Assembly (NCBI GenBank): GCA_032718475.1 | Contig: JAUCBJ010006003.1 | Span: forward strand, 1-59,986 | Length of the DNA: 59,986 nt | Source: Nemertoderma westbladi | Lineage: Eukaryota; Animalia; Xenacoelomorpha | Direction of reading: 5' to 3' | In this document: positions 3,640-52,989 of the stretch, piece by piece | Layout of the letters: each line of letters opens with the position of its first letter | Position numbering within the stretch: position 1 is the stretch's first letter | The notes under the pieces: model-generated | Told to the model about the DNA's origin: nothing | Databases searched by the model: none | Seen by the model: only the letters and a program-made list of their open reading frames with translations | Position numbers and translations under genes: made by a program

Positions 3640-4745
3640 TGTTCGCGCTTTTAAGACCTTTGGCAGTTTAACCCGCCAAATCTATATGTCTTCTAGGTTA
3701 TAAATCGACTTTAGCCTATGACAAGTATTTGATATAAATAAATCCAACATTAGCCGAAGCCAGTCAATGCGCGACCATTCACCCGCTGGATATACCCGGG
3801 AGACTGGATTCGGATGCTTTAATTTGATTGCGGTGCAGGCCTACCGTACTATTCGATTGATCGTTAATATATAATCTCTGACAAATATTATTCACTTTCG
3901 GGAAATATTAGCAGTTCCTTTAGGACGTGGCGCTCTATCCATATAAACAGAGTTATGACTTACACTATACACAACGGGATGGCTTATAGATCACAAAAGG
4001 TGCATTCTTTAGGAAATGCTTTGTTACTCGGTCAAGCACATACAGACTATTGCACACCACTGCACACTGAATTGCCGATATTCACTGATTTTAATCATGT
4101 ATAAAGAGAACAGCAACCGACATTTGTAGGGCCTATTAAGTAGCATTGAATTCACTACAAACCACGATAATGTATGTCGCAATTGCTATATGTAACCGGT
4201 CTCTCTAACATTAGTGTATCAAGAAGATTGGGGTTTCTGATCGTTTATCAATATTCTCCAAATAACAATATGCAAACGAATGATACATTTAATAACAAAC
4301 CGTAAATAGCAGTAAATAATGCGGTGAAAAGCAGTTTGAGTTTACAGCACGTAGTATGCAGTACCGTGCCAGACCAGGTAGGTAGTGTGCCAAGTTAACC
4401 AAGATAACAGTTTTGTGATCTTATAATTAAAGACGTTCTAATGTTGGAAAATTCAGAAACATTCCACAGCCGATGATGTTCTAAGCTGGGAAAAACGTCA
4501 TTACTGAATCATGTGATTCATGGTATACATTTTACACACAAAGAGGTAATCTATCACTGTGATTGGTCAACTGTTGTTCTGATTGGTTGATCGAACGGAA
4601 CAAAGAGGCTACACAAGTACAGCAAATCAGCCAACCAGCGGGCGGATTGTGCCACTAGAAGATACAGTTTAGAGGATTTGAGCGAATGGGGGAAAACTGG
4701 ATTACGAATGGAAAAGGCCAGTTATATCCCCCAAAAGCTTTTACA
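3640..4745 (-). repeat. A2 3' LTR (copy 1)
   Basis: tgttcgcgc...gcttttaca; about 9 substitutions seen versus 16184-17289. Confidence 0.97.
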
Positions 4746-6023
4746 CCGCTCCCAGAAAATGGGATTTAATTATATAAAATATAAAAAATCACAGTTTCTA
4801 AAATATAAAAATACTCTAAACAGTTAGTCTTTCTTGCGCGGACGGCGTTTACGCAGTTTCTTGAGGCTAGCAAGAGTCCTTTTCTCTTTGGGGCGAGCCA
4901 CTTTACTAGGAGGGCTATAACTCCTGGGTGAAGGGTGCAATACAATTGCATCAGAAGGTTTAAGGTTACGGTCGGTGTCTCGTCCATTTCAATATGCTTC
5001 TCCTCGAGCTGATTTTCCTCCGCTTGTCGTTGGATACGTTCATCCAAAACTCTCGCAGAGAATAGGGTTGTCTAAGTTCGATATCTTCTTAGAGATTCTG
5101 GATTTCCCAATCGAACTGAGATAAAGCCAATTCGTTTATCGCTTGGACTTGCTGTTACAACTTACGTTTATCTGAACAAACGCAGGTTTCCTTTCTGATC
5201 TTTGTAGAATAGCGTTTAACTCGTTTCGTACAACGCTCTCCTCCACCTTGATGAAGGGTTGTATCGCGTTAAACTGGGACGACTATACGGTTGAATGGCG
5301 ATATTAGGTGTCCGCATCCCAATACGGCTAGGTAAGATGGGCGGCTAGCTAGAGCTCACTGCCGGAGTGTTACCGATTAATTGTTAGGGTAACACTAGAT
5401 CTTTGAACAGTGAATACAGCTCGTGAGGATCCGTGATACTATCAGAATCGAAAGTCTGATGTCTAACTAAGGAATGAGGAGGTCTGACCGAGGATTCCGG
5501 AACTCTGATCATTGGTTTATTTAAGGATCGTCTGAGTCGAACGAGCGTAGGTGATACGTCAAACAAATTTCGCTCGAAACTCCCGCAAGTATAGCGAGTA
5601 AAACCGTGTTTAGTGCAACGTCTCCGCGGATGTTTAGGTCTTTCCGTTTGTTGGTTGGGTCTAGGGCATTCATCGCAATAATACCAAAGACGCACGTCTT
5701 GTAGGGGAAACGCGAGTGATCTTTCTCCAGCTTACAATATTCCTCCATCTGTTCGAAGCTATCCGGTACAACAGGTAGCGGTCAATCGGCGGTAAGATAC
5801 ATCATAGTGGAATAGAGCCGTTTGAGTTCTACCATGCGGTCATGATGTATACCTTGAGGATATCGAGTTTCTAGATTCTGTTGACTGGTAATATCGAGAT
5901 AGGTTTCTCTCAAGAATTCCAGGTATTTGGTGAAGTCGCTGCGTTTATCCGGCTCTTCAACATCTGCACTTTCGAGTCGGTTTCGAATAGAATTTTCGTG
6001 TTCGAGTCTCAGTTTATCGTTCC

Positions 6024-6036
6024 GGGTTAGGGTTAG
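6024..6036 (+). repeat. Interstitial telomeric insert GGGTTAGGGTTAG at the duplication junction
   Basis: 6025-6034 (GGTTAGGGTT) is absent from both parental sites (8559 onward and before 3501). Confidence 0.9.
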
Positions 6037-6173
6037 TTTCTTAGCAGCGGGATTATAGAATTTTCCGATGAGATTCAGGAGATCTGTAGACAACTAGATT
6101 GGTTAGGTAAGTCTCATGAATACCAGAATTCTATGGTTGTAGGAGCCTTAGCATCAGCTTTGCCAAAGGGTGA

Positions 6174-7279
6174 TGTTCGCGCTTTTAAGACCTTTGGCAG
6201 TTTAACCCGCCAAATCTATATGTCTTCTAGGTTATAAATCGACTTTAGCCTATGACAAGTATTTGATATAAATAAATCCAACATTAGCCGAAGCCAGTCA
6301 ATGCGCGACCATTCACCCGCTGGATATACCCGGGAGACTGGATTCGGATGCTTTAATTTGATTGCGGTGCAGGCCTACCGTACTATTCGATTGATCGTTA
6401 ATATATAATCTCTGACAAATATTATTCACTTTCGGGAAATATTAGCAGTTCCTTTAGGACGTGGCGCTCTATCCATATAAACAGAGTTATGACTTACACT
6501 ATACACAACGGGATGGCTTATAGATCACAAAAGGTGCATTCTTTAGGAAATGCTTTGTTACTCGGTCAAGCACATACAGACTATTGCACACCACTGCACA
6601 CTGAATTGCCGATATTCACTGATTTTAATCATGTATAAAGAGAACAGCAACCGACATTTGTAGGGCCTATTAAGTAGCATTGAATTCACTACAAACCACG
6701 ATAATGTATGTCGCAATTGCTATATGTAACCGGTCTCTCTAACATTAGTGTATCAAGAAGATTGGGGTTTCTGATCGTTTATCAATATTCTCCAAATAAC
6801 AATATGCAAACGAATGATACATTTAATAACAAACCGTAAATAGCAGTAAATAATGCGGTGAAAAGCAGTTTGAGTTTACAGCACGTAGTATGCAGTACCG
6901 TGCCAGACCAGGTAGGTAGTGTGCCAAGTTAACCAAGATAACAGTTTTGTGATCTTATAATTAAAGACGTTCTAATGTTGGAAAATTCAGAAACATTCCA
7001 CAGCCGATGATGTTCTAAGCTGGGAAAAACGTCATTACTGAATCATGTGATTCATGGTATACATTTTACACACAAAGAGGTAATCTATCACTGTGATTGG
7101 TCAACTGTTGTTCTGATTGGTTGATCGAACGGAACAAAGAGGCTACACAAGTACAGCAAATCAGCCAACCAGCGGGCGGATTGTGCCACTAGAAGATACA
7201 GTTTAGAGGATTTGAGCGAATGGGGGAAAACTGGATTACGAATGGAAAAGGCCAGTTATATCCCCCAAAAGCTTTTACA
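6174..7279 (-). repeat. A2 3' LTR (copy 2, from the duplication)
   Basis: Apparently identical to 3640-4745. Confidence 0.97.
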
Positions 7280-7299
7280 CCGCTCCCAGAAAATGGGAT

Positions 7300-8876
7300 T
7301 TAATTATATAAAATATAAAAAATCACAGTTTCTAAAATATAAAAATACTCTAAACAGTTAGTCTTTCTTGCGCGGACGGCGTTTACGCAGTTTCTTGAGG
7401 CTAGCAAGAGTCCTTTTCTCTTTGGGGCGAGCCACTTTACTAGGAGGGCTATAACTCCTGGGTGAAGGGTGCAATACAATTGCATCAGAAGGTTTAAGGT
7501 TACGGTCGGTGTCTCGTCCATTTCAATATGCTTCTCCTCGAGCTGATTTTCCTCCGCTTGTCGTTGGATACGTTCATCCAAAACTCTCGCAGAGAATAGG
7601 GTTGTCTAAGTTCGATATCTTCTTAGAGATTCTGGATTTCCCAATCGAACTGAGATAAAGCCAATTCGTTTATCGCTTGGACTTGCTGTTACAACTTACG
7701 TTTATCTGAACAAACGCAGGTTTCCTTTCTGATCTTTGTAGAATAGCGTTTAACTCGTTTCGTACAACGCTCTCCTCCACCTTGATGAAGGGTTGTATCG
7801 CGTTAAACTGGGACGACTATACGGTTGAATGGCGATATTAGGTGTCCGCGTCCCAATACGGCTAGGTAAGATGGGCGGCTAGCTAGAGCTCACTGCCGGA
7901 GTGTTACCGATTAATTGTTAGGGTAACACTAGATCTTTGAACAGTGAATACAGCTCGTGAGGATCCGTGATACTATCAGAATCGAAAGTCTGATGTCTAA
8001 CTAAGGAATGAGGAGGTCTGACCGAGGATTCCGGAACTCTGATCATTGGTTTATTTAAGGATCGTCTGAGTCGAACGAGCGTAGGTGATACGTCAAACAA
8101 ATTTCGCTCGAAACTCCCGCAAGTATAGCGAGTAAAACCGTGTTTAGTGCAACGTCTCCGCGGATGTTTAGGTCTTTCCGTTTGTTGGTTGAGTCTAGGG
8201 CATTCATCGCAATAATACCAAAGACGCACGTCTTGTAGGGGAAACGCGAGTGATCTTTCTCCAGCTTATAATATTCCTCCATCTGTTCGAAGCTATCCGG
8301 TACAACAGGTAGCGGTCAATCGCCGGTAAGATACATCATAGTGGAATAGAGCCGTTTGAGTTCTACCATGCGTTCATGATGTATACCTTGAGGATATCGA
8401 GTTTCTAGATTCTGTTGACTAGTAATATCGAGATAGGTTTCTCTCAAGAATTCCAGGTATTTGGTGAAGTCGCTGCGTTTATCCGGCTCTTCAACATCTG
8501 CACTTTCGAGTCGGTTTCGAATAGAATTTTCGTGTTCGAGTCTCAGTTTATCGTTCCGCTTCCGCTGGGTATGATATTTAAATAAAACCATTTCCCTTTT
8601 GGTGTCTATATCGTTCGTATCGTGTAGGTCGATAGGATGACCAGTAGTTAAGAAGTCCATATACGTACCATTACGATGCGTATAGCGAGCGGTGAATTTT
8701 CTACAGTCCAACCCACGCGCAAGTTGCTCCCGGGACATTGGCGGTTAGATATAACGACCATCGTCCTCCGTAGTAGTTGGACCAGCGTCGCCGCGTATCA
8801 AGCTATCAACAAACGCTTGTAAAGGTAGAGTATATCGCTCCCTGATACCAAGATCATCTTCTATCAACTCAATCAT
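7300..8876 (-). pseudogene. A2 accessory ORF region downstream of pol, unknown function, broken by stops/frameshifts
   Basis: Starts MIELIEDDLGIRERY at 8876; ORF pieces 8316..8738, 8055..8282, 7918..8229; homologous to 21342.. and 28133.. Confidence 0.65.
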
Positions 8877-10530: not shown

Positions 10531-13500
10531 TTATGTTATGGAGTCCCTAGATATTTGTTGGATTAGGGAGGTGGTCGTGGGAAGAGTATCTTGCCTTCCA
10601 TAGTTTCCGGACAGTTTTCGGTTTCTTTCCAGTAAACATAAACGACCAGCTGGGCGATTGAGTTGTTGTGTTACTTTCTCCGCTCCCTTGGCCTGTCTAA
10701 TCTTAGCCGGGGTAAGATGAGGAGGCGGCCATTCATCTTCTTTACTTAGGAAGTCGGGTCCACCTAACCACGCTGGAGTGTCTATCAGTTCTTGAGGAGT
10801 TGCTCCTCTGGAAGCGATGTCGGCTAGATTAATCATCTCGGGGCAATGTCTCCATTGATCTACATTGGAGTTGATATCGTCATTATCTGAGGAGTATGGT
10901 GTTCCCTCAGTTGGGTCGTCAACTTCACTGTTCTCCACTTCCCGTTCACTTAATTGATATACCTGTTCTTTCGGTAATCTTTCCATGAGAGTTCTACGGG
11001 AAGGGCCAGTAAAGTACCAACCCACTCTAGTTCTTCCCGCATAGACTTGTAATGGTTGCGGTTGAGCAGGCCGTTTCTCCAATGTCTCAAGCGCTTCATG
11101 CGCATTTTGGCCGATGAGTATTTGCACTCCAGGGTAATCTGTGTTGAATCTAGGTACATTAAGCTGCTGGGTGGAATCGTCCTCATCCCAGTTATAAGGT
11201 TCTACTTGGCTGGTAGCGAAGTTCTTTATCGCCACCATTTTTACTGACCTTATGCTGTGTTCTCCTAGTTCATCCTGGGGGGTGGACAACGCACCTACAT
11301 AATAATCCGTTATTACTGTAGATTTCCAAACCTGCATAATTCCTGACATGTTTAACTTAGTTCGGAACTTGGGTTGTCCAGCAAACATGTCTTCGGCTAG
11401 TTCTTTGTCGATGAATGTTCCTGTGCTACCGGAGTCAAGGAGGGCGTTCACTGTATAACTCCTTTTAAGTCCGTGGACCCTTAACTGTACTACTGGAAAT
11501 TCTCGGATTCCTACATTGGAAGTTGGTGCTTTCCAAGATGGTTGTCGGTCAGAAGTAGTTAGGGGGAGCTCACTGTTGGTATCCTTTTCATACGTAAGTG
11601 CTCGATACACTGCGGTATTGATTAGGTAACAGGATTCGTTTTCGTCGGAGAATTCGTCCGTATAGAATCCTTCCATCTCAGAACATTGGTCAGTGTCGTT
11701 CACATCACTGAATTGGACATGTAGTTCGGACTCACTTACCTGACTCGGGCTGTTCCGTTCGAATTCAGTGTGCAACAAGATATGATGTTTTGCGCCGCAC
11801 TTTGCACACCTTGCGTCGGAGTAACAGGTTCGCCGTTGGTGTCCTCGTCTGAGGCAATTATAACACAACCGCTTATCCCACATGACTTCACGTCTGTCCT
11901 TTAGTGATTTCCTCAGGAATTCATCACACGCACTTAAACGGTGGGGCCCGTCACACAGCACACATTTCGGTTTGATGTTACTTACCTTACTTTGGGTAAC
12001 GTTGTGCACACTCGTTCTTTCCTCGGGCTTTCTTACATGAATTCTCTTAGGAGACGTAGGAGGAGTTTTTCTTACCTGTTCTCTCCTGTCATTGGTTCGA
12101 GACTTGAATTTACTTACGTCCTTAGGCGCTTTGTTGTCATAGTAATATCTTTCAGTGTCTTTCCCGCTGTCTTCCCCTTGAGAAGTCTGGCTTTCGCCGT
12201 CGTCTGTATAATACACTGGTGTTACCTTTCTCCTAGAGACGGGTTTCTCACTTACCTTGTTTTCCGGTGTCTTCTCTCTGGACTGTTTTAGGAGCTGTAA
12301 TTTCACTTCTCCATCTAAGAATGACATGAGATCAGCCATGGTAGGGTCTCGTCGTTGTTGTTCCATCATATATAACACTTTCTTATCCCAGCGTGTACCT
12401 ACTCCACCCTTCGGTAAAGTAGAAGCCACGGCTCCAATGACCATAGAACTCTGATATTCATGATTCATATTTCATGATTCATATTCATGATTTCTAATTG
12501 TCTACAGATCTCTTGAATCTCATCGGAAAACTCTATTATCCCGCTGCTAATGAACTTTCGGGGCGCTACTAATTTTGCGTACAAATATTTAGCTATGTTA
12601 TTCCTATTACCATACCTGATGTTTAGTGTATCCCAAACTTGTCTTAATCCGTCTGGATGTCCAATAAACTTTAACGCCATTAACTTGGGAGATCCTTCCA
12701 AGCACTCGATGAGGAATCTAAGTTTCTCTCCATTAGATAGTACAGAGTTCTGTATGTTATCTTTATAATATTCATTAAAAGGTAACCATTTCATCTCATC
12801 TCCATTGAACTTGACTATCTCTCCCACCTTTACCGCTTGACGGGCTTCGGTTCTAGCCATTTGACGCGTAAAACTTTCTTGGGCCATCGTGTTATTTAAT
12901 ATCGAGTTATCGGTATATAAATTTCTCGGATTATGATCAGGTCTATAGGGAATATCATTATCAACAGGTTTATAATTACCCTTAATAGGGTTTACTATAG
13001 GAGTTTCTACTTCACTAGCAGTATAGATGCGTGTAGGCTCCACACCTTGCGCATGAAACACTTCAGACCTAACAGGTTGACACATTGTTACAGGGGGTGG
13101 TGGTATACCCTTTTGTGTATTCACTAATTTATCGCGTTCTAGCGCGATACTTTGCTGCACTTCTTGCAACTCTAACCTACTCTCTCTAATTGTTCCCTTT
13201 AACTGCTGCACAGTTCCCTCCATCTCCTGGGCCTGCCGAGAGGAGCGAGAATGTTGTTCCCTCAGCTGTCCGAGCAGGAGACCCATCTCCCGTCGTCCCT
13301 CATCTACCCACTCGACCGCCGAAGCGGGAGGCGCCAACGTTGTAGCGGGCGGACGAGGGACAACGGGCGACAAGTCATGAATATTTCGCTCGGAGTCCAG
13401 GACATGAACAATTTCAGGAGTGGTTCTGTGGGGCACAGGTAGCTTCGTGCTGTGCAGAGGGAATTTAGAGGTAGGTTCAGGGAGTACAGGTGTCTCTATC

Positions 13501-14214
13501 ACCGAAGGGGTGGCTTCGAGAACAGGCCTAATTATTTCAGGCTCATCTACTATAGTAGGGAGTCTTTCTATATTAATTATTTGGTCTGTGGGTTCTGTAC
13601 TACCTAAGTTTGTGTCAGTTAGTTGCCTTCTAACAGCTGGGAGCAAATCAGGCAATTTCTGACGGTGGGATATTCTTCTACGTCTGCTTAGACGAGATCT
13701 ATTTCCTCCGCCTTCAGCATCAGTTGTATCGCCTTCCTCAGATGATGTATATCCCTGCCATTTGGGAGTAGATCGACTCATCATCTGCATTTGACTAGCT
13801 GTTAACTGTTTATTTATGCAGTCTTGATTCTCTTGAATATTTTCCAAATCTAGTTGGGCGATCTCTTCAGCCGCTCTCCGTTCTGCATAAACCGAATAAA
13901 CCGCATCCGTCATCTTTGCTCCGCGCTCGGGTGTCAGCTCTACTGGAGCCGTCGGGCCGTTGAGAAATAAGTTCTTGGCTCGCGGGTTGTTGCGGTTCCG
14001 CTGCTTCTTGGTCCCGCTTGACCTGAGCTCGAGTGCCTATGATAGACCTATGATGTTGGACTAGCCTAGGGTCTGATATTACTACGGGAGGGATGATCTT
14101 TCTTACAGTAGGAGGTGAGTTTAACTTCGGTCCTACACGTTCCACACTCCTGTCTGGGTCACATATGGTTGTATCTAGGAGACTGTCTGACAGGTTTTGC
14201 TTTGTGTCAGACAT
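10531..14214 (-). pseudogene. A2 gag-protease polyprotein with RT/RNase H and integrase core deleted
   Basis: ORFs 13867..14214, 12465..13913, 10531..12468; BEL triple Zn knuckle CVLCDGPHRLSAC/CYNCLRRGHQRRTC/CAKCGAKHH; protease LLDSGS; jumps directly to VDQWRHCP and TQQLNRP. Confidence 0.9.
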
Positions 14215-16172: not shown

Positions 16173-16183
16173 AAAACTGTTAT
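16173..16183 (-). promoter_or_regulatory. A2 primer-binding position, self-complementary type (ATAACAGTTTT)
   Basis: No TGG; 11/11 complementary to the LTR-internal 11-mer at 16948-16958. Confidence 0.75.
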
Positions 16184-17289
16184 TGTTCACGCTTTTAAGA
16201 CCTTTGGCAGTTTAACCCGCCAAATCTATATGTCTTCTAGGTTATAAATCGACTTTAGCCTATGACAATTATTTGATACAAATAAATCCAACATTAGCCG
16301 AAGCCAGTCTATGCGCGACCATTCACCCGCTGGATATACCCAGGAGACTGGATTCGGATGCTTTAATTTGATTGCGGTGCAGGCCTACCGTACTATTCGA
16401 TTGATCGTTAATATATAATCTCTGACAAATATTATTCACTTTCGGGAAATATTAGCAGTTCCTTTAGGACGTGGCGCTCTATCCATATAAACAGAGTTAT
16501 GACTTACACTATACACAACAGGATGGCTTATAGATCACAAAAGGTGCATTCTTTAGGAAATGCTTTGTTACTCGGTCAAGCACATACAGACTATTGCACA
16601 CCACTGCACACTGAATTGCCGATATTCACTGATTTTAATCATGTATAAAGAGAACAGCAACCGACATTTGTAGGGCCTATTAAGTAGCATTGAATTCACT
16701 ACAAACCACGATAATGTATGTCGCAATTGCTATATGTAACCGGTCTCTCTAACCTTAGTGTATCAAGAAGATTGGGGTTTCTGATCGTTTATCAATATTC
16801 TCCAAATAACAATATGCAAACGAATGATACATTTAATAACAAACTGTAAATAGCAGTAAATAATGCGGTGAAAAGCAGTTTGAGTTTACAGCACGTAGTA
16901 TGCAGTACCGTGCCAGACCAGGTAGGTAGTGTGCCAAGTTAACCAAGATAACAGTTTTGTGATCTTATAATTAAAGACGTTCTAATGTTGGAAAATTCAG
17001 AAACATTCCACAGCCGATGATGTTCTAAGCTGGGAAAAACGTCATTACTGAATCATGTGATTCATGGTATACATTTTACACACAAAGAGGTAATCTATCA
17101 CTGTGATTGGTCAACTGTTGTTCTGATTGGTTGATCGAACGGAACAAAGAGGCTACACAAGTACAGCAAATCAGCCAACCAGCGGGCGGATTGTGCCACT
17201 AGAAGATACAGTTTAGAGGATTTGAGCTAATGGGGGAAAACTGGATTACGAATGGAAAAGGCCAGTTATATCCCCCAAAAGCTTTTACA
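16184..17289 (-). repeat. A2 5' LTR
   Basis: tgttcacgc...gcttttaca followed by TSD GGTGA. Confidence 0.97.
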
Positions 17290-19476
17290 GGTGAAGTAGG
17301 TACTCGCTGGGACAAAAAGGTTCTCTATTTGATGGACCAACAACATAGGGATCCAACCATGACGGACCTTCTGTCATTCTTAAACCGGGAGGTAAGATTA
17401 CAACTCCTAAAACAGTCTAGAGAGAAGACTCCTGAAAGAGAGGTAAGTGAAAAACCCGTTTCTAGGAGAAAGGTAACACCAGTGTGTTATACAGACGACC
17501 GCGAAAGCCAAACCTCCCACGAGGAGAACAGCGGGAAAGACACCGAAAGATCTTATTATGTCAACAAAACTCTGAAAGACGTAAGTAAATTTAAGTCTCG
17601 AACCAGTGACAGGAGAGAACAGGTAACAAAAACTCCTCCTACGTCTCCTAAGAGAATTCATGGAAGAAAGCCTGAGGAAAGAACAAGTGTGCACCACACA
17701 GCACAGGTTAAAGTAAGTAACATCAAGCCCAAATGTGTATTGTGCGATGGGCCACATCGCTTGAGTGGGTGTGATGAATTCCTGAAGAAATCCCTTAAGG
17801 ATAGACGTGATGTCATGTGGGATAAGCGGTTGTGTTATAATTGTCTCAGACGAGGACACCAACGGTGGACCTGTTACTCAGATGCTAGGTGTTCTAAGTG
17901 CGGCGCGAAACATCATATCTTGCTGCACACAGAATTTGAAAGAACCCGCACGAGTCAAGTAAGTGAGCCCGAACTACATGTCCAATTCAGTGATGTGAAC
18001 GACACTGACCACAGCTCTGAGATGGAAGGATTCTACACCGACGAATTCTCCGACGAAAACGAATCCTGTTATATGACAAACACCGCGGTGTATCGAGCGC
18101 TTACGTATACGACTGAAACCGATAACGAAGCGCACCCGGCTATTCCTGACCGATAACCATCTTGGAAAGCGCCAACTTCCAATGTCGTAATCCGGGAATT
18201 CCCCGTAGTTCAGCTGAGAGTCCATGGAGTCCGTAAGAGTTTTATAGTCAACGTCCTCCTGGACTCCGGCAGCACAGGAACATTCATCGACAAAGAACTA
18301 GCCGAAGACATCTTTGCTGGACAACCCAAGTTCCGAACTAAGTTGAACCTTTCAGGAATTATGCAGGTTTGGAAATCCACAGTAGCTACAGACTACTATG
18401 TAGGAGCGTTGTCCACTCCCCAGGACGAACTAGGAGAACACAGCATAAGGACAGTAAAAATGGTGGCGATAAAGAACTTTGCTACCAGCCAAGTGGAACC
18501 TTACAACTGGGATGAAGACGATTTTACCCAGCAGCATGATATCCCTAGATTCAACACCGACTACCCAGGAGTACAGATACTCATCGGCCAAAATGCGCAT
18601 GAGGCGCTTGAGACATTAGAGAAACGGCCTGCTCGACCGCAACCATTGCAAACATATGCGGGAAGAAGGAAAGTAGGTTGGTACTTCACTGGACCTTCCC
18701 GTAGGACACTCATGGAAAGGCTACCTAACGACCAAGTCCATCAGGTGAGTGAATGGGAAGAAGAAATCAGTGAGGGAGAGACCACAACTGAGGGAACACC
18801 ATACTCCTCAGATAATGACGATATTAAACCTAATGTAGATCAATGGAGATATTGCCCTGGGACTATTAATCCAGCCGACATCCCTTCCAGAGGAGCAACC
18901 CCTCAAGAACTGATAGATACTCCGGACTGGTTAGGTGGACCCGACTTCCAAAGTAAAGAAGAAGATGAATGGCCTCCCCATCATACCACGGCTGAGATTA
19001 GACAAGCCAAGGGAGCGGAGAAAGTCAAACCTAAAACCCGGATGAGTAAATCAAAGTTATTCAAACCCGTGATAGATCTGTATGTACTACACATTTCCAG
19101 GGACGACTCTGTGGATCTAAACTTCCCCGCCACAAATAAATCTGTTGTGGAAATCAGAGAAAAAGACTGGAAATCTGGAACACCAGACGTCTCGCAGGGA
19201 TTCTCACCTCTCCTGCAGAGAGCGATAAATCACTATAGCACCTGGAATCGGCTTTGTAAGGCTGTCATGTATTTGAAGCGATGTTTCTATCGTCACTATT
19301 CCAGGACGAAGAAGAAACCTGGAATTGTATTCGAAACACAGCAGCTCAATCGCCCAGTTGGTCGTTTATGTTTACTGGAAAGAGACAGAGAACTGTCCGG
19401 AAACTATGGAAGGCAAGATACTCTTCCCACGACCACCTCCCTAATCCAACAAGCATCTAGGAACTCCCCAACGTAA
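17290..19476 (+). pseudogene. A1 gag C-terminus + protease + remnants of pol (RT/RNase H and integrase core deleted)
   Basis: ORFs 17230..18156 and 18343..19476 separated by one stop; Zn knuckles; ctcctggactccggcagc = LLDSGS. Confidence 0.9.
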
Positions 19477-22844: not shown

Positions 22845-24084
22845 TGTAAAAGCTTTTGCGGATATAACAAGTCATTTTTGTCCGCAATTTACTGTGTAAG
22901 TATTTTAGCGGACATAACAAGCCATTTCCCCCGTAATGCGCAGTATAGGTGCTTTAGCGGACATAACAAGCAATTTTTACCGCAATGAGCTTAATACTCT
23001 AAATAGATTGTAGTTCAGATGACGAAATCTGTCAGCTGATTTACTGTCGATGTGGAACTTCTTTGTTCAGCTCGCTCAGCTCAGCCAATCAGAGCAATTT
23101 TCATTTTATCTTGCACAGAGGCCTACGGAAAACCGGGCAATGCATTACGGTCTTTGTTTACCTTTCTGAGCGAGAACAACCGCTTGGAAATTCTTCTGTA
23201 CTTCTGTGTTGGAAGTTTCAGACTTTGACCTAAACATCAGAAACATCAGATGGCTTTGATTACAAGAACGTAAAACTATTAACTGAATCATACTTCATAT
23301 CTGAATCACTGAAACATCGCGGCACTACGCAACGCGATTCAACTACCGCATCACACCGCAATTCATGCATTGCTGCACATGGAACACTGCATAAGTAACA
23401 CATACTGACTGTTCACCGCATTATTTGATTCTGTTATTAATTGGTGTTATGTTGTTGGTGTATATTGCTGATATATTTGGAGAATACCGATGAATAATCA
23501 TAAAACCCCCAATCTTCTTGATTACTAAAGGTTAGAGGAACAGGTTTACCGGTAGCAACTGCGACTTACATTATAGTGGTTTTGGTATGAATTAAATGCT
23601 ATTTCATAATCCCTACATGTGTCAGTTGCGATCCTCCTTATATATGATCAAATTCATTGACGGTCGGCAGATCAGTGCGCAGTAGTGTGAACTAGTGTGA
23701 AGTCGTGTGAAGTAGTGTGAAGGTTAATAAAGCATCTCCTAAAGAATGCGCTTTTTACGAAACTCAGTAGCCATCCAGTTGTGATTAGTATAAGTCATAA
23801 CTCTGTTTTATACTTAAAGCGCCACGTCCTAAAGGAACTGTTAATATTTCCCCGAAAGTAAATATATTGTCAGAGATTATATATTAACGATCAATCGAAT
23901 AATACAGTAGGTCTACACTGCAATCACTATCAAAGCATCCGAATCCAGTCTACCTTAACTGTGGGTGAATGGTCACGCACAGGCTGGCTTCGGCTGATGT
24001 AACTTCAGTACATTAAATAATTGATATACAAAAAGACAATTAAAATTGGCAGGTTAAACTGCTAAAGGTCTAAAAGCGCGAACA
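22845..24084 (+). repeat. A1 3' LTR (1240 bp)
   Basis: PPT GGGAGCGG then tgtaaaagc...gcgcgaaca; ~51-bp tandem units in U3. Confidence 0.93.
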
Positions 24085-24155
24085 CGTATCATCTGCCTAC
24101 TGTACTTACCTTACATCACAATACATTACACTCTCTAGACTTAGAACATTAGACA

Positions 24156-25511
24156 TGTTCGCGCTTTCAGACCTTTAGCAGTTTAACCTGCCAATTTTAG
24201 GTGTCCTCTTGTTTATAAATCGACTTTAGCCTATAACAATTATTTAATGCACATGAAGTAACATTAGCCGAAGCCAGTCTATGCGCGATCATTCACCCAC
24301 AGTTAAGGGAGACTGGATTCGGGTGCTTTGAAGTTATTGCGTTGCAGACCTACTGTATTATTCGATTGATCGTTACTATATAATCTCTGACAATATTATT
24401 CACTTTTGGGGAAATATTAACTGTTCCTTTAGGACGTGGCGCTTTAAGTATAAAAACAGAGTTATGACTTATACTAAACACAACGGGATGGCTACTGATT
24501 TTCGTAAATAGCTCATTCTTTAGGATATGCTTTATTATCTGTCACACTGCTGCATACGACTTCACGCTGCTGCACACTGATCTGCCGACCGTCACTGAAT
24601 TTGACCAAATATAAGGACGATAGCAACTGACACATGTAGGGATTATGAAATAGCATTTAATTCACACTAAAACCACTATAATGTAAGTCGCAATTGCTAC
24701 CGGTAACCGGTCCCTCTTACCTTCAGTAATCAAGAAGATTGGGGGTTTTATGATTATTTATCAGTATTCTCCAAATATAACACTACTACTACTAGGATCG
24801 GCATGCTGCATTGCAGCTGCATTATTAAGAATGCTGTGCCGGCTTGTCAACAAAAAATATAACAACATATCCATCAACATATAACAATTAATAACAGACA
24901 GTAAACAGCAGTAAAATAATGCGGTGAATAGGATTGAGTGAGTGCAGTTTGCAGTTTGCACAGTGATTCAGTTGTTTCATCAGATGTTATGGTTTGTTGA
25001 ACAGTTGCACAGTGCAGTCGTAATGCATTGATTGCCAGTTGACAGGATGTCCGTAGGTGCCGAGTTGGTAGATGCAGCCAGGTGCAGATAATAGATTTAC
25101 GTTCTTATAATCAAAGCCGTCTAATGTTGGCCAAAGTCTGAAACTTCTACAGAAGCACAGAAAAATAATTTCCAAGCCGATGTTCTGAGGCTCAGAAAAG
25201 GTAAACAAAAACCGTAATGCATTGCGCGGTTTTCCGTAGGCCTCTGTATAAGATAAAATGAAAATCTCTCTGATTGGCCGAGCCTGAACAAAGAGAGGCT
25301 CCACGTGTACAGTAAATCAGCTGACAGATTTCGTCATAGGAGTTCCAGTCTCTTAGAGTATTAGGCGTATTGCGGCAGAAAATGGCTTGTTATGTCCGCT
25401 AAAACACCTACAGGGTACATCGCAGAGAAAATGGCTTGTTATGTCCGCTAAAACAACTACACAGTTCATTGCGGAGAAAAATGACTTGTTATATCCGCAA
25501 AAGCTTTTACA
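24156..25511 (-). repeat. A3 3' LTR
   Basis: Matches 51515-52770 apart from indels and a few substitutions. Confidence 0.96.
24783..24854 (-). mobile_element. 72-bp insertion in the A3 3' LTR, probably a 5'-truncated LINE/SINE tail
   Basis: Absent from the 5' LTR; 10-bp duplication AAATATAACA (24773-24782, 24855-24864); (TAG)4 tail on the minus strand. Confidence 0.7.
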
Positions 25512-25589: not shown

Positions 25590-28133
25590 TTAGTCTTTCT
25601 TACGCGAACGGCGTTTACGCAGTTTTTTGAGGCTAGCAAGAGTCATTTTCTCTTTGGGGCGAGCCACTTTATTAGGATGGCTATAACTCCTGGGTGAGGT
25701 GTGCAATACAATTGCATCGGAAGGTTTAGGATTACAGTTGGTGTATCCGCCAGTCGAGGTACTCGGTTGATCGGTATCAACCTCAGTGGAACGAGGTCGA
25801 ACAACCTTCAGAGCGCGTTTCAAGACAGCAGCTCTTACTGGTCCCTGACGATTCGTCTGCACGAGAGAGGTAGGTGGACCGTGTGTAGTGAGAAATTTCC
25901 TCGGTTTGATGGTTCTTTCCGACTCGCGTTCTCGGGCTCTGTCGAAAACGATATGCTTCTCCTCGAGCTGATTTTCCTCCGCTTGTCGTTGGAAGCATTC
26001 GTCTAAAACTCTTTTAGAGAGTAGGGTCGTCCAAGTTCGATATCTTCTTAGAGATTCTGGATTTCCCGATCGAACTGAGATAAAGCTAATTCGTTTACCG
26101 CTTGGACTTGCTGCTGCAATTTACGTTTCTCTAAACAATCGTAGGTTCCTTTTCCGATCTTTTGTCGAATAGTGTCTAACGCGTTGCATACAACTCTCTT
26201 CTCCATCTCGGTGACAGGTTGTATCGGGGTTAAACCGGGACGATTATATGGGTTGAACGGCGATATTAAATGTCCGCATCCCAATCCAGCTAGGTAGGAT
26301 GGGCGAATATCTAGGGAGCCCACAACCGGAGTGCCACCAACTAATTGTTCAGGTAACACTAGATCTTTGAACAATGAGTACAGCTCAGGAGGATCCGTCA
26401 TACTATTAGGATCAAGAGTCTGAGGTCTCACCAGGGAATGAGGAGGTCTGACCGAGTATTCCGGAACTCTGATCATAGGTTTATTTAAGGATCGTTTGAG
26501 TCGAGTCGAGTAGGTGATACGTCGAACAAGTTTCGCTCGAAACTCCCATAAATATAGAGAGTAAAACTATGTTTAGCGCAACGTCTCCGCGGATGTTTAT
26601 GTCTTTCCGTGTGTTGGTTGGGTCTAGGGCATTCATTGTAATAATACCAAAGACGCACGTCTTGTAGGGGAAATGCTGGTGATCTTTCTCCAGTTTTACA
26701 ATGTCTCTCTCAAGAATTCCAAATATACGTTGAAGTCACTGCGTTTAGGGGCTGTCCAAGTATGACGTCAGCACTTTAGGGGGGGGAGGGGGGTTGGGAA
26801 AATCTGATGACGTGCTGATGAGGGGAGGGGAGGGGCTCAGCCAAAATCTGACGTCAGCATGTTCATTTATAGGTGCTAGAAGAGATATAGCAGAAGAGTA
26901 AATAGCTTGCCTATTTTAATTGTTCGAAGCCCCCGAAGGCCCGTAGCACGACCTTCTGTTTCAGTTACCAGTCACCATGTTTCAGTGATTACGACGCGTG
27001 CTACTGGGGTACTGCGGTACAGCGGTTCGCCTGAAAATGAAACATTAATCCTAAGCTAATGATTGTTAGAGACTGCAGTACCGTTACCTCTACCGGTTCA
27101 TATAGGCTTATTATTAGCTTATGTTTGTTTATTATCATTCATAAACTGCTGTCGCATCAGGTACAAGTATGTAAACTTTAGGCATCACCCATGTGAAGAA
27201 TACCAGGATTTCACTTTTCGGTCGACTTTTTATTGGAATTTTATATATGGAGAATTTTTATTTTTTTTTAATTTATCTTTATTAAGTGTTTTGTAGCGCT
27301 TATTTCTGTCTTATAACCTGTACATATACTAATTCGTTTATTGTTTTGGTTAGATTCAGCCCTTCAGTAACCTGTGTTTTTGGTGAAAACCTGGTATTCT
27401 TCACATGGGGGTAACTGCAAAGTGAAACATAACGGCAGAAAGTCTGGTATTCTTCACATGGGCCCGATAGGCTATCCTACTACAACTCTATACCTTCCTA
27501 TAGTAGATAAGCTATGTAACAGCCAGCCCCCGTGCACCCCCCTCCAACTGTCCAATGCAATATAATCAGATAATACCTTTACCCTGCTGATAATAGTTTA
27601 TTACAAAAAAAAATGTTAATCTGATTTAGGGGGGGGGGGGGGGGGGGGTCGATGCCTATCTGATGATATCTGATTTAGGGGAGGGAGGGGGTCAACATTT
27701 TGGGGAAAAGTGCAGACATCATACTTGGACGGCCCCTTATCCGGTTCTTTAACGTCTTCTCTTTTGAGTTGGTTTCGAATAGAATTTTGTGTTCGATTCT
27801 CAGTTTATCGTTCCGACTCCGCTGGGTATGATATTTAAATAGGATCATTTCCCTTTCGGTGTCTACATCGTCCATATCGTGTAAATCGATAGGATCGCCA
27901 TTAGTAAAGAAGTCTATATACGTACCATTACGATGCGTATAGCGAGCGGTGAATTTTCTATAGTCCAATTCACGCGTGAGCTGTTCCTTTGACATTGGCG
28001 GTTCGATATAACGGCCATCATCCTCCGTAGTGGGTGGACTAGCGTCGCCGCGTATTAAACTATCAACAAACGCTTGCAATGGTAGGGTATATCGCTCCCT
28101 GATACCAAGATCATCTTCTATCAACTCAGTCAT
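25590..28133 (-). pseudogene. A3 accessory ORF region downstream of pol, split by the MITE
   Basis: ORFs 27675..28133 (MTELIEDDLG...), 26048..26476, 25783..25998. Confidence 0.65.
26748..27736. mobile_element. PIF/Harbinger-type non-autonomous DNA transposon (MITE, 989 bp)
   Basis: ~30-bp TIRs GGGGC(T/C)GTCCAAGTATGA(C/T)GTC(A/T)GCACTTT; 3-bp TTA TSD; empty site gcgtttatccgg in the other copies. Confidence 0.92.
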
Positions 28134-30683: not shown

Positions 30684-31238
30684 TGTGACGGGATCCAAGG
30701 AGGATCCCGGTTTATCCGCGGTTGTTCAAAGTACGCGTCCCCGCCGTTTGTGTGGAAAGAGTTTGAGAGTTCTGGTGTTATTGATTCTCTGATATGTATA
30801 ATATAGACGTTAAATGGATATAGTATAAATGGTGTAATATATTGCAATTGAAGTATAGTATGTACAGGTAATGGTGGTAGGCAAGGACGGTCTTAGAAGT
30901 CTCCGCTCTACCCTAGCTAACCGACTAACACAAATGAGATAACTGAATAACTGATTACTGATACCTAATAATATATTGCACGGTTCGGCCGTTGTTACAG
31001 TACCTAGCCGGTGCCTGCCCCCCCATTGGCTGATATCCCTGTTGGCGCCCTTTGGAATGTTTCCCCTTCACTCCCGCAATTCTCTCTCTGTCAGGGGTAT
31101 GGCCCCTGACCCCTATTGTGTGTTTCTCCTTCCCACTTTGTTGGGGTGGCACGAGTGGTTGATTACCCAACCTCGTGGCCCCCAATATTGCTTAACGGCT
31201 TACTTTGTGGGGTGTTAGCGGAATTGGATAAGCTAACA
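30684..31238 (-). repeat. B 3' LTR
   Basis: tgtgacggg...gctaaca. Confidence 0.97.
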
Positions 31239-43791: not shown

Positions 43792-43802
43792 AGTTCTAAG
43801 AC
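43792..43802 (-). promoter_or_regulatory. B primer-binding position, self-complementary type (GTCTTAGAACT)
   Basis: No TGG; 9 contiguous and 10/11 total complementary to LTR 44009-44019. Confidence 0.65.
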
Positions 43803-44357
43803 TGTGACGGGATCCAAGGAGGATCCCGGTTTATCCGCGGTTGTTCAAAGTACGCATCCCCGCCGTTTGTGTGGAAAGAGTTTGAGAGTTCTGGTGTTAT
43901 TGATTCTCTGATATGTATAATATAAACGTTAAATGGATATAGTATAAATGGTGTAATATATTGCAATTGAAGTATAGTATGTACAGGTAATGGTGGTAGG
44001 CGAGGACGGTCTTAGAAGTCTCCGCTCTACCCTAGCTAACCGACTGACACAAATGAGATAACTGAATAACTGATTACTGATACCTAATAATATATTGCAC
44101 GGTTTGGCCGTTGTTACAGTACCTAGCCGGTGCCTGCCCCCCCATTGGCTGATATCCCTGTTGGCGCCCTTTGGAGTGTTTCCCCTTCACTCCCGCTATT
44201 CTCTCTCTGTCAGGGGTATGGCCCCTGACCCCTATTGTGTGTTTCTCCTTCCCACTTTGTTGGGATGGCACGAGTGGTTGATTACCCAACCTCGTGGCCC
44301 CCAATATTGCTTAACGGCTTACTTTGTGGGGTGTTAGCGGAATTGGATAAGCTAACA
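43803..44357 (-). repeat. B 5' LTR
   Basis: tgtgacggg...gctaaca followed by TSD CATCG. Confidence 0.97.
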
Positions 44358-44367
44358 CATCGTGTTG

Positions 44368-46995
44368 CTAGTTCCAAAGCGAGCGATCTGTCATTCGTAA
44401 ACTCAGTATGAAGCTGTTGGTAGATAGATCGTTCACCATATCTAGATGGATCGCTCTACAAGTCATACAGACAAAGATGACACACCATCGCTTGACTATA
44501 GTCCTAGCACGATATACTTCAATAGGGCCAAATAAATCCACACCGGTATTAGTAAAGGGTGGTTCATAGAAGCTTACTCGTTCCCTAGGTAATTCTGCCT
44601 CTCGCTGTGTTAAAGGCCTACTGAATGCTTTCCTACAGGGTATACAGTTCCTAAGAACTTGGTTCAGAGCTCTACGCGGTTTATGGAAATAATAGCGAGT
44701 TCGAATTTCGCTAAGAACTCGTTCTCTACCAGCATGGTAAAGCTTACTGTGAACATCTACAATCATCTTGATTTGTATTTCAAGATTTCTAATGAGTATG
44801 GAAAACTTAGTGTCAAAGGATAGTGGAGCATTAGTTAGTCTCCCTCCAACACGTATCAACCCATCTATCATTGTGCTAGAGAAACGATCCCTTAAGCGTA
44901 TCTGCAGATTTCTCAACAACAGGAAATTCTTATCGGAATCTTCATAGCATTGCAGGAGTCTCAGTATCTGCTTATTGGTTTCTTCATGCTCCTGGTAGCG
45001 GATCTTCTCCGTCAGAAACCTATCTGATACTTTGTATTGGGGAAGATCTTTAATAGCATGAACCTGTGCAGATGTCAGTGGAGCGATATCACTAGCGATC
45101 TTCGTCCTGGAGTAGTGATGATGGAAGCATCGCTTTAAATATACGACGGCCTTACAAAGCCAATTCCAGGAGCTATAGTGATGTATCACTCTCTGCAGGA
45201 GAGGTGAGAGTCCCTGCGAGACGTCTGGTGTTCCAGATTTCCAGTCTCTCTCTCTGATTTCCACAACAGACTTATTTGTGGCGGGGGAGTTTAGATTCAC
45301 AGCGTCGTCCCCGGAAATGTGTAGCACAGACAGATCTATCACGGGTTTAAATAACTTCGATTTACTCGTCCGGGTTTTAGGTTTGACTTTCTCCCCTCCC
45401 TTGGCTTGTATAATCTCAGCCGTGGTAAGATGAGGAGGCCATTCATCTTCTTCTTTACTTAGGAAGTCGGGTCCACCTAACCAGTCCGGAGTATCTATCA
45501 GTTCTTGAGGAGTTGCTCCTCTGGAGGCGATGTCGGCTGGATTAATCGTCCCAGGGCAATGTCTCCATTGATCTACACTAGTGCGACTAAGTATAATGGC
45601 TACTCTGTTGGTAATGAAGACGCTGAACTGACAGACTTCATTGGTTATATACTCCAAAACGAGTAAAGCATCAGTCCAATAGACAGTTTTCTCCAGTGGA
45701 TAGTCGATCTGTTCTGTGACATTCCGGCCGATGGCTGTAGCGTATAGAGCTGCCTTTAACTCTGCTCGAGGAACTCGTAGCTTGTTGTTTATCAAGGCCT
45801 TAGAGGTAACCAAGGCAACTTTAATTCCATCCGGAGTTTCAACCCTCAGGTAGGCTACTATACCTATTCCCATATCGCTGGCGTCTCCAAACACATGGAG
45901 TTGATAGGAATACGTGGGGAGAACGTGACCAAAATAGGAACGGGAAATCGTAAAGTTCTCGATGGATGGTAGAGAGTCTTCCCATTTCATCCACTTCTTT
46001 AGTAGTTCTCCCTTAAGTGGATCGTCCCACGAGTGGTTTTCAAGCCACATTTGTTGCACTAAGCTCCGAGCAACCAATATAACTGGGCTAATAAATCCCA
46101 ATGGATCGAAATAAGTGCTCAGGATACTTAGACAAATCCGTTTAGTTTGAACTGGATTATCTCGCTGTTTTAGCTGGAAAAACAGGATATCTCTCTCCGT
46201 GTCCCATTTCAAACCAAGCGTCTTGGTTTCTGGAAGATCGTCCTTGATTAGGTCCAGATCTTTAACTCCTCGGTCTTCTACCGGGATCGATTCCAGAAAC
46301 TCACGGGAGTTACTTGTGAATTTAGTTAGTCGAAATCCACCGCGTTTCAAGCACTCTACCGTTCCCTTGGCAACATCAATGGCTTCTTCCACCGATGGGA
46401 GGGACTTTAAATTATCGTCCATGTATATATCCCATTTGATGTTGTCGATAACCGCTTTAGAGAAGGCGTCTCGGTTGTCATCAGCAGTGGTGCGCACTAC
46501 TGAACAAGCGTTCGAGGGGCTCGAGATGATCCCGAAAGCCTGGATGGTCATCCAGTACTCCACCGGTTTTTGGTTGAGGTCTCCTTCAGGCCACCACAGA
46601 AATCGTAGGCTGTCTCGATCCCTATCCAGCGCCTTAACTTGTAAGAACATGCCCTCTATATCCGAGGCGAAGGCGATCGAATATTGCCGTAATCTTAAGA
46701 GTATTCCCAACAAGGATTGGAGTAAGTTGGGTCCCGGCAACAACTCAGAGTTAAGGGATTGGCCCATGTAAAGGGCGGAGCCGTCAAATACTACCCGGAC
46801 TTTGTTGGGTTTACTGGGTTTGGGAACGTAATGATGTGTTAGATAATACGTTCTCTCAGTTATGGGTGTTTCTTCCGGTACTCGCTCCGCGTATCCCTTA
46901 TCGATGAATTTCTTCAGCTGGGTCTTATACATCTCTTTAGCTGAAGCATTTTCCGTAAGGTGTCGATGTAGTTGCACGATTCTCTTCTCCACCAA
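44368..46995 (-). CDS. A3 pol: reverse transcriptase, RNase H, integrase N-terminal half
   Basis: YYLTHH, KVRVVFDGS, DIEGMFLQV, IYMDD, FDPLG, FGDAS, WTDA, NPADIASRG, HHCC finger, GVDLFGP; frameshift just before the B insertion. Confidence 0.93.
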   Translation of the reverse strand: MVEKRIVQLHRHLTENASAKEMYKTQLKKFIDKGYAERVPEETPITERTYYLTHHYVPKPSKPNKVRVVFDGSALYMGQSLNSELLPGPNLLQSLLGILLRLRQYSIAFASDIEGMFLQVKALDRDRDSLRFLWWPEGDLNQKPVEYWMTIQAFGIISSPSNACSVVRTTADDNRDAFSKAVIDNIKWDIYMDDNLKSLPSVEEAIDVAKGTVECLKRGGFRLTKFTSNSREFLESIPVEDRGVKDLDLIKDDLPETKTLGLKWDTERDILFFQLKQRDNPVQTKRICLSILSTYFDPLGFISPVILVARSLVQQMWLENHSWDDPLKGELLKKWMKWEDSLPSIENFTISRSYFGHVLPTYSYQLHVFGDASDMGIGIVAYLRVETPDGIKVALVTSKALINNKLRVPRAELKAALYATAIGRNVTEQIDYPLEKTVYWTDALLVLEYITNEVCQFSVFITNRVAIILSRTSVDQWRHCPGTINPADIASRGATPQELIDTPDWLGGPDFLSKEEDEWPPHLTTAEIIQAKGGEKVKPKTRTSKSKLFKPVIDLSVLHISGDDAVNLNSPATNKSVVEIRERDWKSGTPDVSQGLSPLLQRVIHHYSSWNWLCKAVVYLKRCFHHHYSRTKIASDIAPLTSAQVHAIKDLPQYKVSDRFLTEKIRYQEHEETNKQILRLLQCYEDSDKNFLLLRNLQIRLRDRFSSTMIDGLIRVGGRLTNAPLSFDTKFSILIRNLEIQIKMIVDVHSKLYHAGRERVLSEIRTRYYFHKPRRALNQVLRNCIPCRKAFSRPLTQREAELPRERVSFYEPPFTNTGVDLFGPIEVYRARTIVKRWCVIFVCMTCRAIHLDMVNDLSTNSFILSLRMTDRSLWN

Positions 46996-47414
46996 GGGTC
47001 GGTTATTTATAAAGTTGGGTTCTCGCCGTCGGAATGGCAGACCAATCTCATACCTACCTTGATCTTTAAGAAAACTTGTAGTCGTTTCCTGGATCTGCTT
47101 GGCTCTTTCCTCCTCGACCGATAGTGCTTTGTCGTAGGAATTAGGCTCTACAGCTTCTTGAGTAAAGAATCGTACGGCGTGTTCGTCGCAAATCTTAGCG
47201 TTGTGTCAATCTATCACCTCATTTAGCTCGTCATTGTAGTCGAGTTGTCCGCCATGATGGATGAGATGGCAAAGGTGCACTTGGTTTCTCCAAGCTTCAC
47301 TTTCAGTGAGGAGGTCGATTGTATTTTCCTCGTCAAATAATTGGGTAATATCGTCGTTGTCTGAGGAGTATGGTGTTCCCTCAGGTGTGATCTCTCCCTC
47401 ACTGATTTCTTCTT

Positions 47415-51503: not shown

Positions 51504-51514
51504 AAATCTATTAT
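51504..51514 (-). promoter_or_regulatory. A3 primer-binding position, self-complementary type (ATAATAGATTT)
   Basis: No TGG; 11/11 complementary to the LTR-internal 11-mer at 52347-52357. Confidence 0.75.
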
Positions 51515-52770
51515 TGTTCGCGCTTTCAGACCTTTAGCAGTTTAACCTGCCAATTTTAGGTGTCCTCTTGTTTATAAATCGACTTTAGCCTATAACAATT
51601 ATTTAATGCACATGAAGTAACATTAGCCGACGCCAGTCTATGCGCGATCATTCACCCACAGTTAAGGGAGACTGGGTTCGGGTGCTTTGAAGTTATTGCG
51701 TTGCAGACCTACTGTATTATTCGATTGATTGTTACTATATAATCTCTGACAATATTATTATTCACTTTCGGGGAAATATTAACAGTTCCTTTAGGACGTG
51801 GCGCAATGACTTATACTAAACACAACGGGATGGCTACTGATTTTCGTAAATAGCGCATTCTTTAGGACATGCTTTATTATCTGTCACACTGCTGCATACG
51901 ACTTCACGCTGCTGCACACTGATCTGCCGACCGTCACTGAATTTGACCATATATAAGGAGGATAGCAACTGACACATGTAGGGATTATGAAATAGCATTT
52001 AATTCACACTAAAACCACTATAATGTAAGTCGCAATTGCTACCGGTAACCGGTCTCTCTTACCTTCAGTAATCAAGAAGATTGGGGGTTTTATGATTATT
52101 TATCGGTATTCTCCAAATATAACAACATATCCATCAACATATAACAATTAATAACAGACAGTAAACAGCAGTAAAATAATGCGGTGAATAGGATTGAGTG
52201 AGTGCAGTTTGCAGTTTGCACAGTTTGGAGTTGTTTCATCAGATGTTATGGTTTGTTGCACAGTTGCACAGTGCAGTCGTAATGCATTGATTGCCAGTTG
52301 ACAGGATGTCGGTAGGTGCCGAGTTAGTAGATGCAGCCAGGTGCAGATAATAGATTTACGTTCTTATAATCAACGCCGTCTAATGTTGGCCAAAGTCTGA
52401 AACCTCTACAGAACCACAGAAAAATAATTTCCAAGCCGATGTTCTGAGGCTCAGAAAAGGTAAACAAAAACCGTTATGCATTGCGCGGTTTTCCGTAGGC
52501 CTCTGTACAAGATAAAATGAAAATCTTTCTGATTGGCCGAGCCTGAACAAAGAGAGGCTCCACGTGTACAGTAAATCAGCTGACAGATTTCGTCATCGGA
52601 GTTCCAGTCTTTTAGAGTATTAGGCGTATTGCGGCAGAAAATGGCTTGTTATGTCCGCTAAAACACCTACAGGGTACATTGCGGAGAAAATGGCTTGTTA
52701 TGTCCGCTAAAACAACTACACAGTTCATTGCGGAGAAAAATGACTTGTTATATCCGCAAAAGCTTTTACA
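51515..52770 (-). repeat. A3 5' LTR (1256 bp)
   Basis: tgttcgcgc...gcttttaca followed by TSD AGACA; ~51-bp U3 repeats at ~52630-52760. Confidence 0.96.
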
Positions 52771-52989
52771 AGACATGCTGTATGAATCAATACTAGAAAT
52801 TATTATTAGAATAACCATGATACACTTTTAACTATTCCCTATAATTTTCTATTCTATAAAATATATTAATATAACCTCTGTATTCGACAGCCATATTATA
52901 TAATTCGTATTCATCAATTTTATATTTTAAAACTATTTATTTCTTGATAGGCAACTTTATTTTAATTAATAATCTTTAGTGTAATTAAA

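Follow-up and report, generated by a model that had tools for sequence, protein, structure and literature searches.

Two families of BEL/Pao LTR retrotransposons (hereafter, families A and B) in a 59,986-nt stretch of the genome of Nemertoderma westbladi (the window) very probably prime minus-strand DNA synthesis with their own RNA rather than with a tRNA, whichever of the two primer sources discussed below is involved. Judging from sequence comparison, self-priming is likely to be a property of the lineage and not of family A specifically. This conclusion is based on the flush, compensated pairing between the LTR and the adjacent site in family A, on the pairing in family B, and on the distribution of such pairing among relatives outside the window, where it appears in nearly all of the analyzed elements without a TGG site and in none of those with one. 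Self-priming would explain the position, the length and the compensated changes of the complementary sequences as well as their mutual exclusion with the TGG site. Thus, the tRNA-independent self-priming in BEL/Pao proposed in the initial annotation remains the best reading, with support added by family B and the outside relatives, whereas its description as a feature of family A proved too narrow.

Self-complementary LTRs of families A and B

The assignment of the elements to BEL/Pao, made from the sequence in the initial annotation, is confirmed by the Peptidase_A17, DUF1759, DUF5641 and Integrase_H2C2 domains detected in the window. There are 716 homologues at E<=1e-50, and PF05380 is present in all 120 among the matches listed. 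The elements have TG...CA LTRs, target-site duplications and a polypurine tract, and Pol follows the order protease-RT-RNase H-integrase with BEL/Pao-specific domains (Table 1). The LTR edges of A2 and A3 were set by the TG...CA ends together with the 5-bp target-site duplications.

At least four BEL/Pao insertions lie nested in this region (2315-52770): A2 is inserted in A1, and B is nested in the integrase of A3, splitting its pol; A1 and A3 lie tail to tail, with 71 bp between them. Every copy of family A (A1, A2, A3) is incomplete. A2, and likewise A1, lacks the RT and the integrase core, and A2 is therefore non-autonomous; A3 has RT and RNase H, and a domain search gave no match for its gag C-terminus and protease. 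Within the window, A1 has neither a 5' LTR nor a primer-binding site (PBS). From the integrase to the 3' LTR, family A contains ~4.3 kb (A3: 25590-28148, minus strand) with open-frame pieces of 157-176 aa, 85-96% DNA identity among A1, A2 and A3, and no Pfam match. At its start, the window has an array of TTAGGG-type telomere repeats (1-333), which makes this a subtelomeric insertion cluster. A tandem duplication of 2534 bp (3501-8558, 99.8% identical) spans the A2 3' LTR together with its junction, and the joint of this duplication (~6023-6035) holds two telomere-type repeat units; it could represent a healed break or an assembly artefact. Beyond the nest, the window encodes the ribosome-assembly protein TSR1 in one uninterrupted, intron-less frame (54349-56961, plus strand; about 45% identical to the nearest animal relatives, in a poorly sampled animal lineage) and a 700-aa P-element/THAP9-like transposase frame (57805-59907, plus strand) with TNP-like RNase H and GTP-binding domains.

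Table 1. Coordinates of the window's BEL/Pao elements and of their candidate primers and primer-binding positions
Feature	Position	Strand	Details
A2 5' LTR	16184..17289	-	1106 nt, TG...CA; 9 differences/1106 vs its own 3' LTR
A2 candidate self-primer 11-mer	16948..16958	-	LTR nt 332-342 of 1106
A2 primer-binding position	16173..16183	-	flush with LTR, exact complement of 11-mer, no TGG
TATAAG	16964..16969	-	5 nt upstream of A2 11-mer; not kept in A1
A2 gag frame (DUF1759)	12465..14036	-	Pfam match
A2 3' LTR	6174..7279	-	purine-rich tract flush upstream, about 7280-7290
Extra copy of A2 3' LTR	3640..4745	-	within the 2534-bp tandem duplication
A2 target-site duplication TCACC	6169-6173 and 17290-17294		flanks element 17289-6174 (-)
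A1 3' LTR	22845..24084	+	third 11-mer variant at 23272-23282
A3 5' LTR	51515..52770	-	1256 nt; 28 differences/1253 aligned bases vs 3' LTR
A3 candidate self-primer 11-mer	52347..52357	-	LTR nt 414-424 of 1256; same alignment columns as A2
A3 primer-binding position	51504..51514	-	flush, exact complement; 2 compensated changes vs A2
A3 pol: RT, RNase H (Pao peptidase A17 model), integrase start	44371..47205	-	rest at 29860-30711
A3 3' LTR	24156..25511	-	target-site duplication TGTCT at 24151-24155 and 52771-52775
Family B 5' LTR	43803..44357	-	555 nt; 8 differences/555 between LTRs
Family B candidate self-primer 9-mer	44009..44017	-	LTR nt 341-349
Family B primer-binding position	43794..43802	-	flush, exact 9-nt complement, no TGG
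Family B 3' LTR	30684..31238	-	target-site duplication CGATG; element 44357-30684

In both A2 and A3, the complement is exactly 11 nt long and begins at the first base past the terminal CA of the LTR. The LTR 11-mers of A2 and A3 differ in 2 positions, each of which has its counterpart change in the post-LTR 11-mer, with a probability of about 0.002 for two mirrored substitutions arising by chance; this covariation involves two informative copies, A2 and A3. When the A2 PBS is compared with the A3 LTR and the reverse, the match extends over only 5-7 nt. The initial annotation had noted the exact complementarity in A2, the compensated differences in A3, the flush position, the lack of a TGG tRNA site next to either LTR and a third variant of the 11-mer in A1, and all these observations were reproduced, down to coordinates and letters; the loop it had put at ~770-830 nt is 764 nt in A2 and 832 nt in A3. 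Given that A1 lacks a 5' LTR and PBS in the window, its 11-mer, which ends in AA, tests nothing. A string of the predicted A1-type PBS at position 20254 is internal and different in the A2 and A3 homologues, and was treated as a chance occurrence.

Dinucleotide shuffling of the LTR produced an 11-nt match at offset 0 in 3/4000 (A2) and 4/4000 (A3) replicates, and in 13/4000 for each element when offsets 0-4 were allowed. The A3 leader includes another, 13-nt complement of the LTR, 117 nt in, so long matches also occur off-site. ARAGORN detected no tRNA genes in the window, and there were no Rfam matches. A tRNA-like stretch with A-box/B-box-like motifs (about 2140-2220, minus strand), which was called by neither ARAGORN nor Rfam, is possibly the head of a SINE.

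Family B is a second case. Its flush 9-nt match is the longest of 300 offsets tested and was reached in 4/4000 LTR shuffles; DNA comparison detected no LTR sequence common to families A and B, and the Pol proteins of the two families are 34-35% identical. Upstream of the 9-mer, 14 nt pair further, and with these upstream bases the duplex energy goes from -9.8 to -21.5 kcal/mol. Between the integrase and the 3' LTR, family B carries extra frames (31946-34420, minus strand), one of which, 384 aa long, is weakly linked by Atlas to 3'-5' exonucleases (0.89) and has no homologue by Pfam, PDB or sequence search, and there is a zinc-knuckle-like stretch (E=0.033). Exonuclease domains occur in nematode BEL elements.

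Thermodynamic folding gave different pictures for different elements. For family B, the probability of the primer:PBS pairing is 0.92 with 40-100 nt of upstream RNA and 0.04 without it; for L061, an unspliced relative described below, it is 0.55 without upstream RNA and 0.08 with it. In the family A leader, the pair probability is 0.00 at all three start points tried, and the primer:PBS duplexes are weak (-9.5 and -8.0 kcal/mol). We found no Tf1-type flanking helices common to A2 and A3. The 4 LTRs aligned all retain a hairpin of 7 bp, located some 20-40 nt before the LTR end. Over its final 620-700 nt (16184-16885, 51515-52199, 23397-24084), the family A LTR is 74-80% identical among A1, A2 and A3, the upstream part of the A2 LTR aligns poorly with the other family A LTRs, and the R/U5 region of this family is unusually long. 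In run X1 (contigs, share 0.06), coverage was confined to the conserved downstream part of the family A LTR, with the 11-mer outside it. The consensus fold of this conserved 3' part has 4/140 pairs with a two-sided change and a positive covariation term, and gives no support for a global structure.

Relatives outside the window

Scans with an alignment of the A3 Pol and 46 homologues identified 104 loci (L001-L104), most of them without a usable LTR pair. We kept 17 loci in which the 3' end of the LTR could be defined by the divergence of the two copies. Among these, the end of L049 coincides with the end of the contig and rests on the sister locus L056, and for L022 and L070, where the LTR start is unclear, lengths of 900 and 500 nt were taken; L025, L044, L046, L051 and L098 were dropped because of ambiguous or truncated ends. 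No relatives were found by the scan among viral contigs. The 25 contigs L080-L104 are filed as bacterial genomes or MAGs and encode animal BEL/Pao Pol, one of them (L103) being a Wolbachia chromosome record, and several contain complete elements with target-site duplications; probably, these records reflect host contamination of the assemblies.

Of the 14 loci (~12 families) without a TGG site, 13 (11/12 families) contain a 10-15 nt self-complement under relaxed rules, a proportion that is not an estimate for BEL/Pao overall because all these loci were chosen by likeness to the A3 Pol and many come from similar contig series. The first rules (offsets 0-3) yielded 10/14, and a single relaxation, introduced once the data were known (offsets 0-4 and a less strict acceptor rule), raised the count to 13/14; under the same relaxed rules, 7/1000 background windows reach 10 nt. 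None of the three TGG-site loci shows a 10-15 nt self-complement, the match being only 4-5 nt. In 11 of the 13 positive loci, the self-complement is obtained through the removal of a predicted GT-AG intron inside the LTR, and in the other 2 (L061, L088) it is unspliced. The remaining locus without a TGG site, L085, reaches 8 nt only; with a canonical donor and acceptor, its match extends to 11 nt if one mismatch is allowed. L082 and L083, which are sister loci, are distinguished by three bases in the upstream part of the exon sequence, and the PBS differ to match. A splice-built primer was considered for families A and B as well and rejected: no canonical junction betters the unspliced match. 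Both families are thus intron-less cases, and family A has an unusually long loop. A secondary set of 11 loci, with the LTR end picked among 4-37 candidates and, accordingly, subject to multiple testing, includes 7 with a 10-11 nt spliced match and 4 without a match (L048, L068, L077, L098).

In a quick RT tree, the TGG elements occupy one side of a branch with support of 83. A3 and B form long branches of unsure position, and the tree, which includes no named clade references (Suzu, Sinbad/Sailor, Tas, Dan, Flow, BEL, Pao), does not establish a common origin with the outside relatives. Symmetry of the PPT-PBS spacer, seen in the flush group and in part of the remaining elements, is not clean across the whole set and was given no weight.

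The location of the candidate primer within the LTR can be compared across the relatives. A poly(A) hexamer lies downstream of the primer in 14/18 of these, with the primer 1-94 nt before the hexamer, and directly before it in L082/L083. A TATA match within 260 nt is present in 8/18; the best match precedes the primer by 122-240 nt in 7 of them and by 31 nt in the remaining one. The 3' end of the primer is A-C in 12/16, A-T in 3/16 and A-C-T in 1/16. A post hoc search of 15 elements for an additional short helix formed by bases upstream of the core gave a summed score of 148 against a null mean of 108 (1/2000); this helix is not significant singly (A2, p=0.20; A3, 0.08; B, 0.54), and an energy-based test of upstream pairing, likewise not significant for A2, A3 or B individually, gave 1/15 families at p<0.05 (Fisher p=0.07). 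From the poly(A) placement, the TATA distance and the upstream helix, the primer in the relatives looks internal to R rather than located at the cap, so that the strict Tf1-like form of the original proposal, with the first 11 nt of the transcript as the primer, is not supported. In family A, CCAAT boxes are found 150-180 nt upstream, and the copies A1, A2 and A3 have no poly(A) hexamer in common. The TATAAG that had been reported 5 nt upstream of the 11-mer is indeed present at this distance in both A2 and A3, and the accompanying caveat that it might be a TATA box, placing the 11-mer in U3, may apply to family A; nevertheless, this caveat is weakened because A1 lacks the motif (it reads TACAAG) and because the relatives place the primer in R.

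Source of the primer

The best explanation, which we favor with moderate confidence, takes the 5' copy of R as the source of the primer, to be freed by an RNase H-type cut; we infer every step after the pairing. The 11-mer would lie in R, at some distance past the transcription start but before the poly(A) site, and the genomic RNA's 5'-proximal copy of it would fold back onto the PBS, probably with the help of a chaperone over the 764-832 nt loop. The RT/RNase H of the element would cut right after the last paired base (the primer end being A-U in family A and A-C in most relatives), freeing a 3'-OH as in Tf1. The RT would then copy U5 and the downstream part of R and transfer to the 3' R, with everything upstream of the cut taken from the 3' copy. 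Plus-strand synthesis would, on the general scheme given in PMC7175516, recopy the PBS from the primer, so that the two sequences would stay complementary in each cycle. In many relatives, the same primer would be assembled by splicing of the LTR intron, whereas families A and B would carry it ready-made.

A distinctly less probable source of a self-primer is the 3' copy of the repeat, in an RNA circle with the 3' part cut or trimmed, or else an independent short LTR transcript supplied in trans; in the intron-bearing relatives, a short, spliced and polyadenylated LTR RNA would serve as the primer and the unspliced genomic RNA would keep the intron. The proximity of the primer to the poly(A) hexamer in the relatives speaks for this arrangement, as does the requirement that the intron persist in one template copy though the primer needs the spliced form, but the 5'-copy model explains intron retention too. 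In family A, the TATAAG that A2 and A3 have just upstream of the 11-mer would agree with transcription starting downstream of the latter, folding in cis over such a distance is not favored, and A2 moved without an RT of its own, which implies that trans supply operates in this family. The cost of a 3' or trans origin is that the downstream RNA and the poly(A) tail must be removed. The exonuclease-like frame of family B was considered as a general part of the mechanism and rejected because most relatives have no extra gene after the integrase, with the LTR about 1 kb past the Pol match.

We tentatively put forward a broader scenario: a large share of marine-animal BEL/Pao elements might have given up tRNA priming for an internal RNA primer that they encode themselves and that is built by host splicing of an LTR intron (in most families), possibly carried on a separate short LTR transcript in trans, with A and B being intron-less versions.

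That the pairing is a structural element, involved in cyclisation, dimerisation or a translation or packaging switch, with priming by a tRNA fragment or at a site further downstream, appears improbable. Half-tRNA priming exists in copia lineages, according to the available text of PMC6317226, but the pairing discussed here stops within 0-4 nt of the LTR edge, at the place required of a primer 3' end; its length is near-constant, it replaces the TGG site instead of accompanying it, and its sequence is wholly different between families and yet matches the LTR of each family itself. Chance complementarity in AT-rich sequence, for which the AT-rich 11-mers and the off-site match in the A3 leader could be invoked, is a negligible explanation, being effectively refuted by the shuffles and the outside-locus counts (~0.001 per element at a fixed position, ~0.002 for the mirrored changes, 0.001 for family B, and 13/14 non-TGG against 0/3 TGG loci).

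Comparison with known priming systems

If these elements are indeed self-primed, they add a further superfamily with tRNA-free priming, PBS-based annotation tools would miss or mis-score such elements, and defences or screens resting on tRNA priming would not apply to them. Splice-built primers would, in addition, couple the onset of reverse transcription to host RNA processing; the literature searched describes no such control point. A nematode BEL element has been proposed to encode its own tRNA-like primer, on which the literature search returned nothing; this would be a different arrangement. We searched full-text literature for the same pattern, and found no report of self-priming in BEL/Pao or of a splice-built primer in the accessible texts; most subscription journals, Repbase Reports and supplements lie outside the coverage of this search, and a prior description is possible. 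A term search of the main text of PMC3118150, PMC554778, PMC6238403 and PMC12440569 found no passage on BEL priming. As far as the available portions go, PMC8220671 includes generic PBS mentions only, PMC11042837 a reference only, PMC13524379 a gypsy PBS survey, and PMC3601003 no BEL primer data.

The ICTV profile of Belpaoviridae calls the replication of this family poorly understood and gives priming by a host tRNA, with an 18-nt PBS for tRNA-Arg or tRNA-Gly (PMC8742986); an insect BEL element with a tRNA-Tyr site is described in the available text of PMC4580426. The elements described here resemble Belpaoviridae in the presence of Gag (DUF1759), protease, RT, Pao-type RNase H and integrase with DUF5641, in the animal host, in the TG...CA LTRs of 0.5-1.25 kb and in the 5-bp target-site duplications, and differ in that A2, A3 and B have no 18-nt tRNA PBS and no TGG after the LTR (PMC8742986).

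Outside BEL/Pao, the fungal GalEa copia and bivalve TRIM elements likewise lack a canonical PBS, but their inverted repeats, as described in the available text, are located within the internal region, 12-41 bp apart, and do not connect the LTR with the PBS (PMC6934838). For the TAR lineage of plant Ty1/copia elements (Houba, Osr-1), self-priming was predicted, as it is here, from the LTR/PBS complementarity alone; this lineage, however, belongs to the copia superfamily and to plants, and a splice-built primer is not mentioned in the accessible part of that article (PMC6317226).

Self-priming has been described for Tf1/sushi/Tcn1 elements, in the portions of the sources available (PMC4600332, PMC10085805, PMC7175516, PMC6317226). 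In Tf1, the PBS is bound by the first 11 bases, cleavage by RNase H falls between bases 11 and 12, and plus-strand DNA ending in the PBS sequence has been described (PMC7175516, available text). Families A and B differ from the Tf1 group in their BEL/Pao domains, that is, in belonging to another superfamily, and show no chromodomain match. Unlike in Tf1, the primer appears to be internal to R instead of comprising the first 11 nt, the loop in family A spans 764-832 nt, and an intron interrupts the primer in most relatives; folding of A2 and A3 showed no shared three-duplex 'pretzel'. What they share with Tf1/Tf2/Tj1 and the Tf1/sushi (Tcn1) chromoviruses of the Ty3/gypsy superfamily, as these are presented in the available text of PMC7175516, PMC4600332 and PMC10085805, is the lack of a tRNA site, the ~11 nt next to the 5' LTR that are complementary to the element's own LTR, and the predicted need for a cleavage that frees a 3'-OH.
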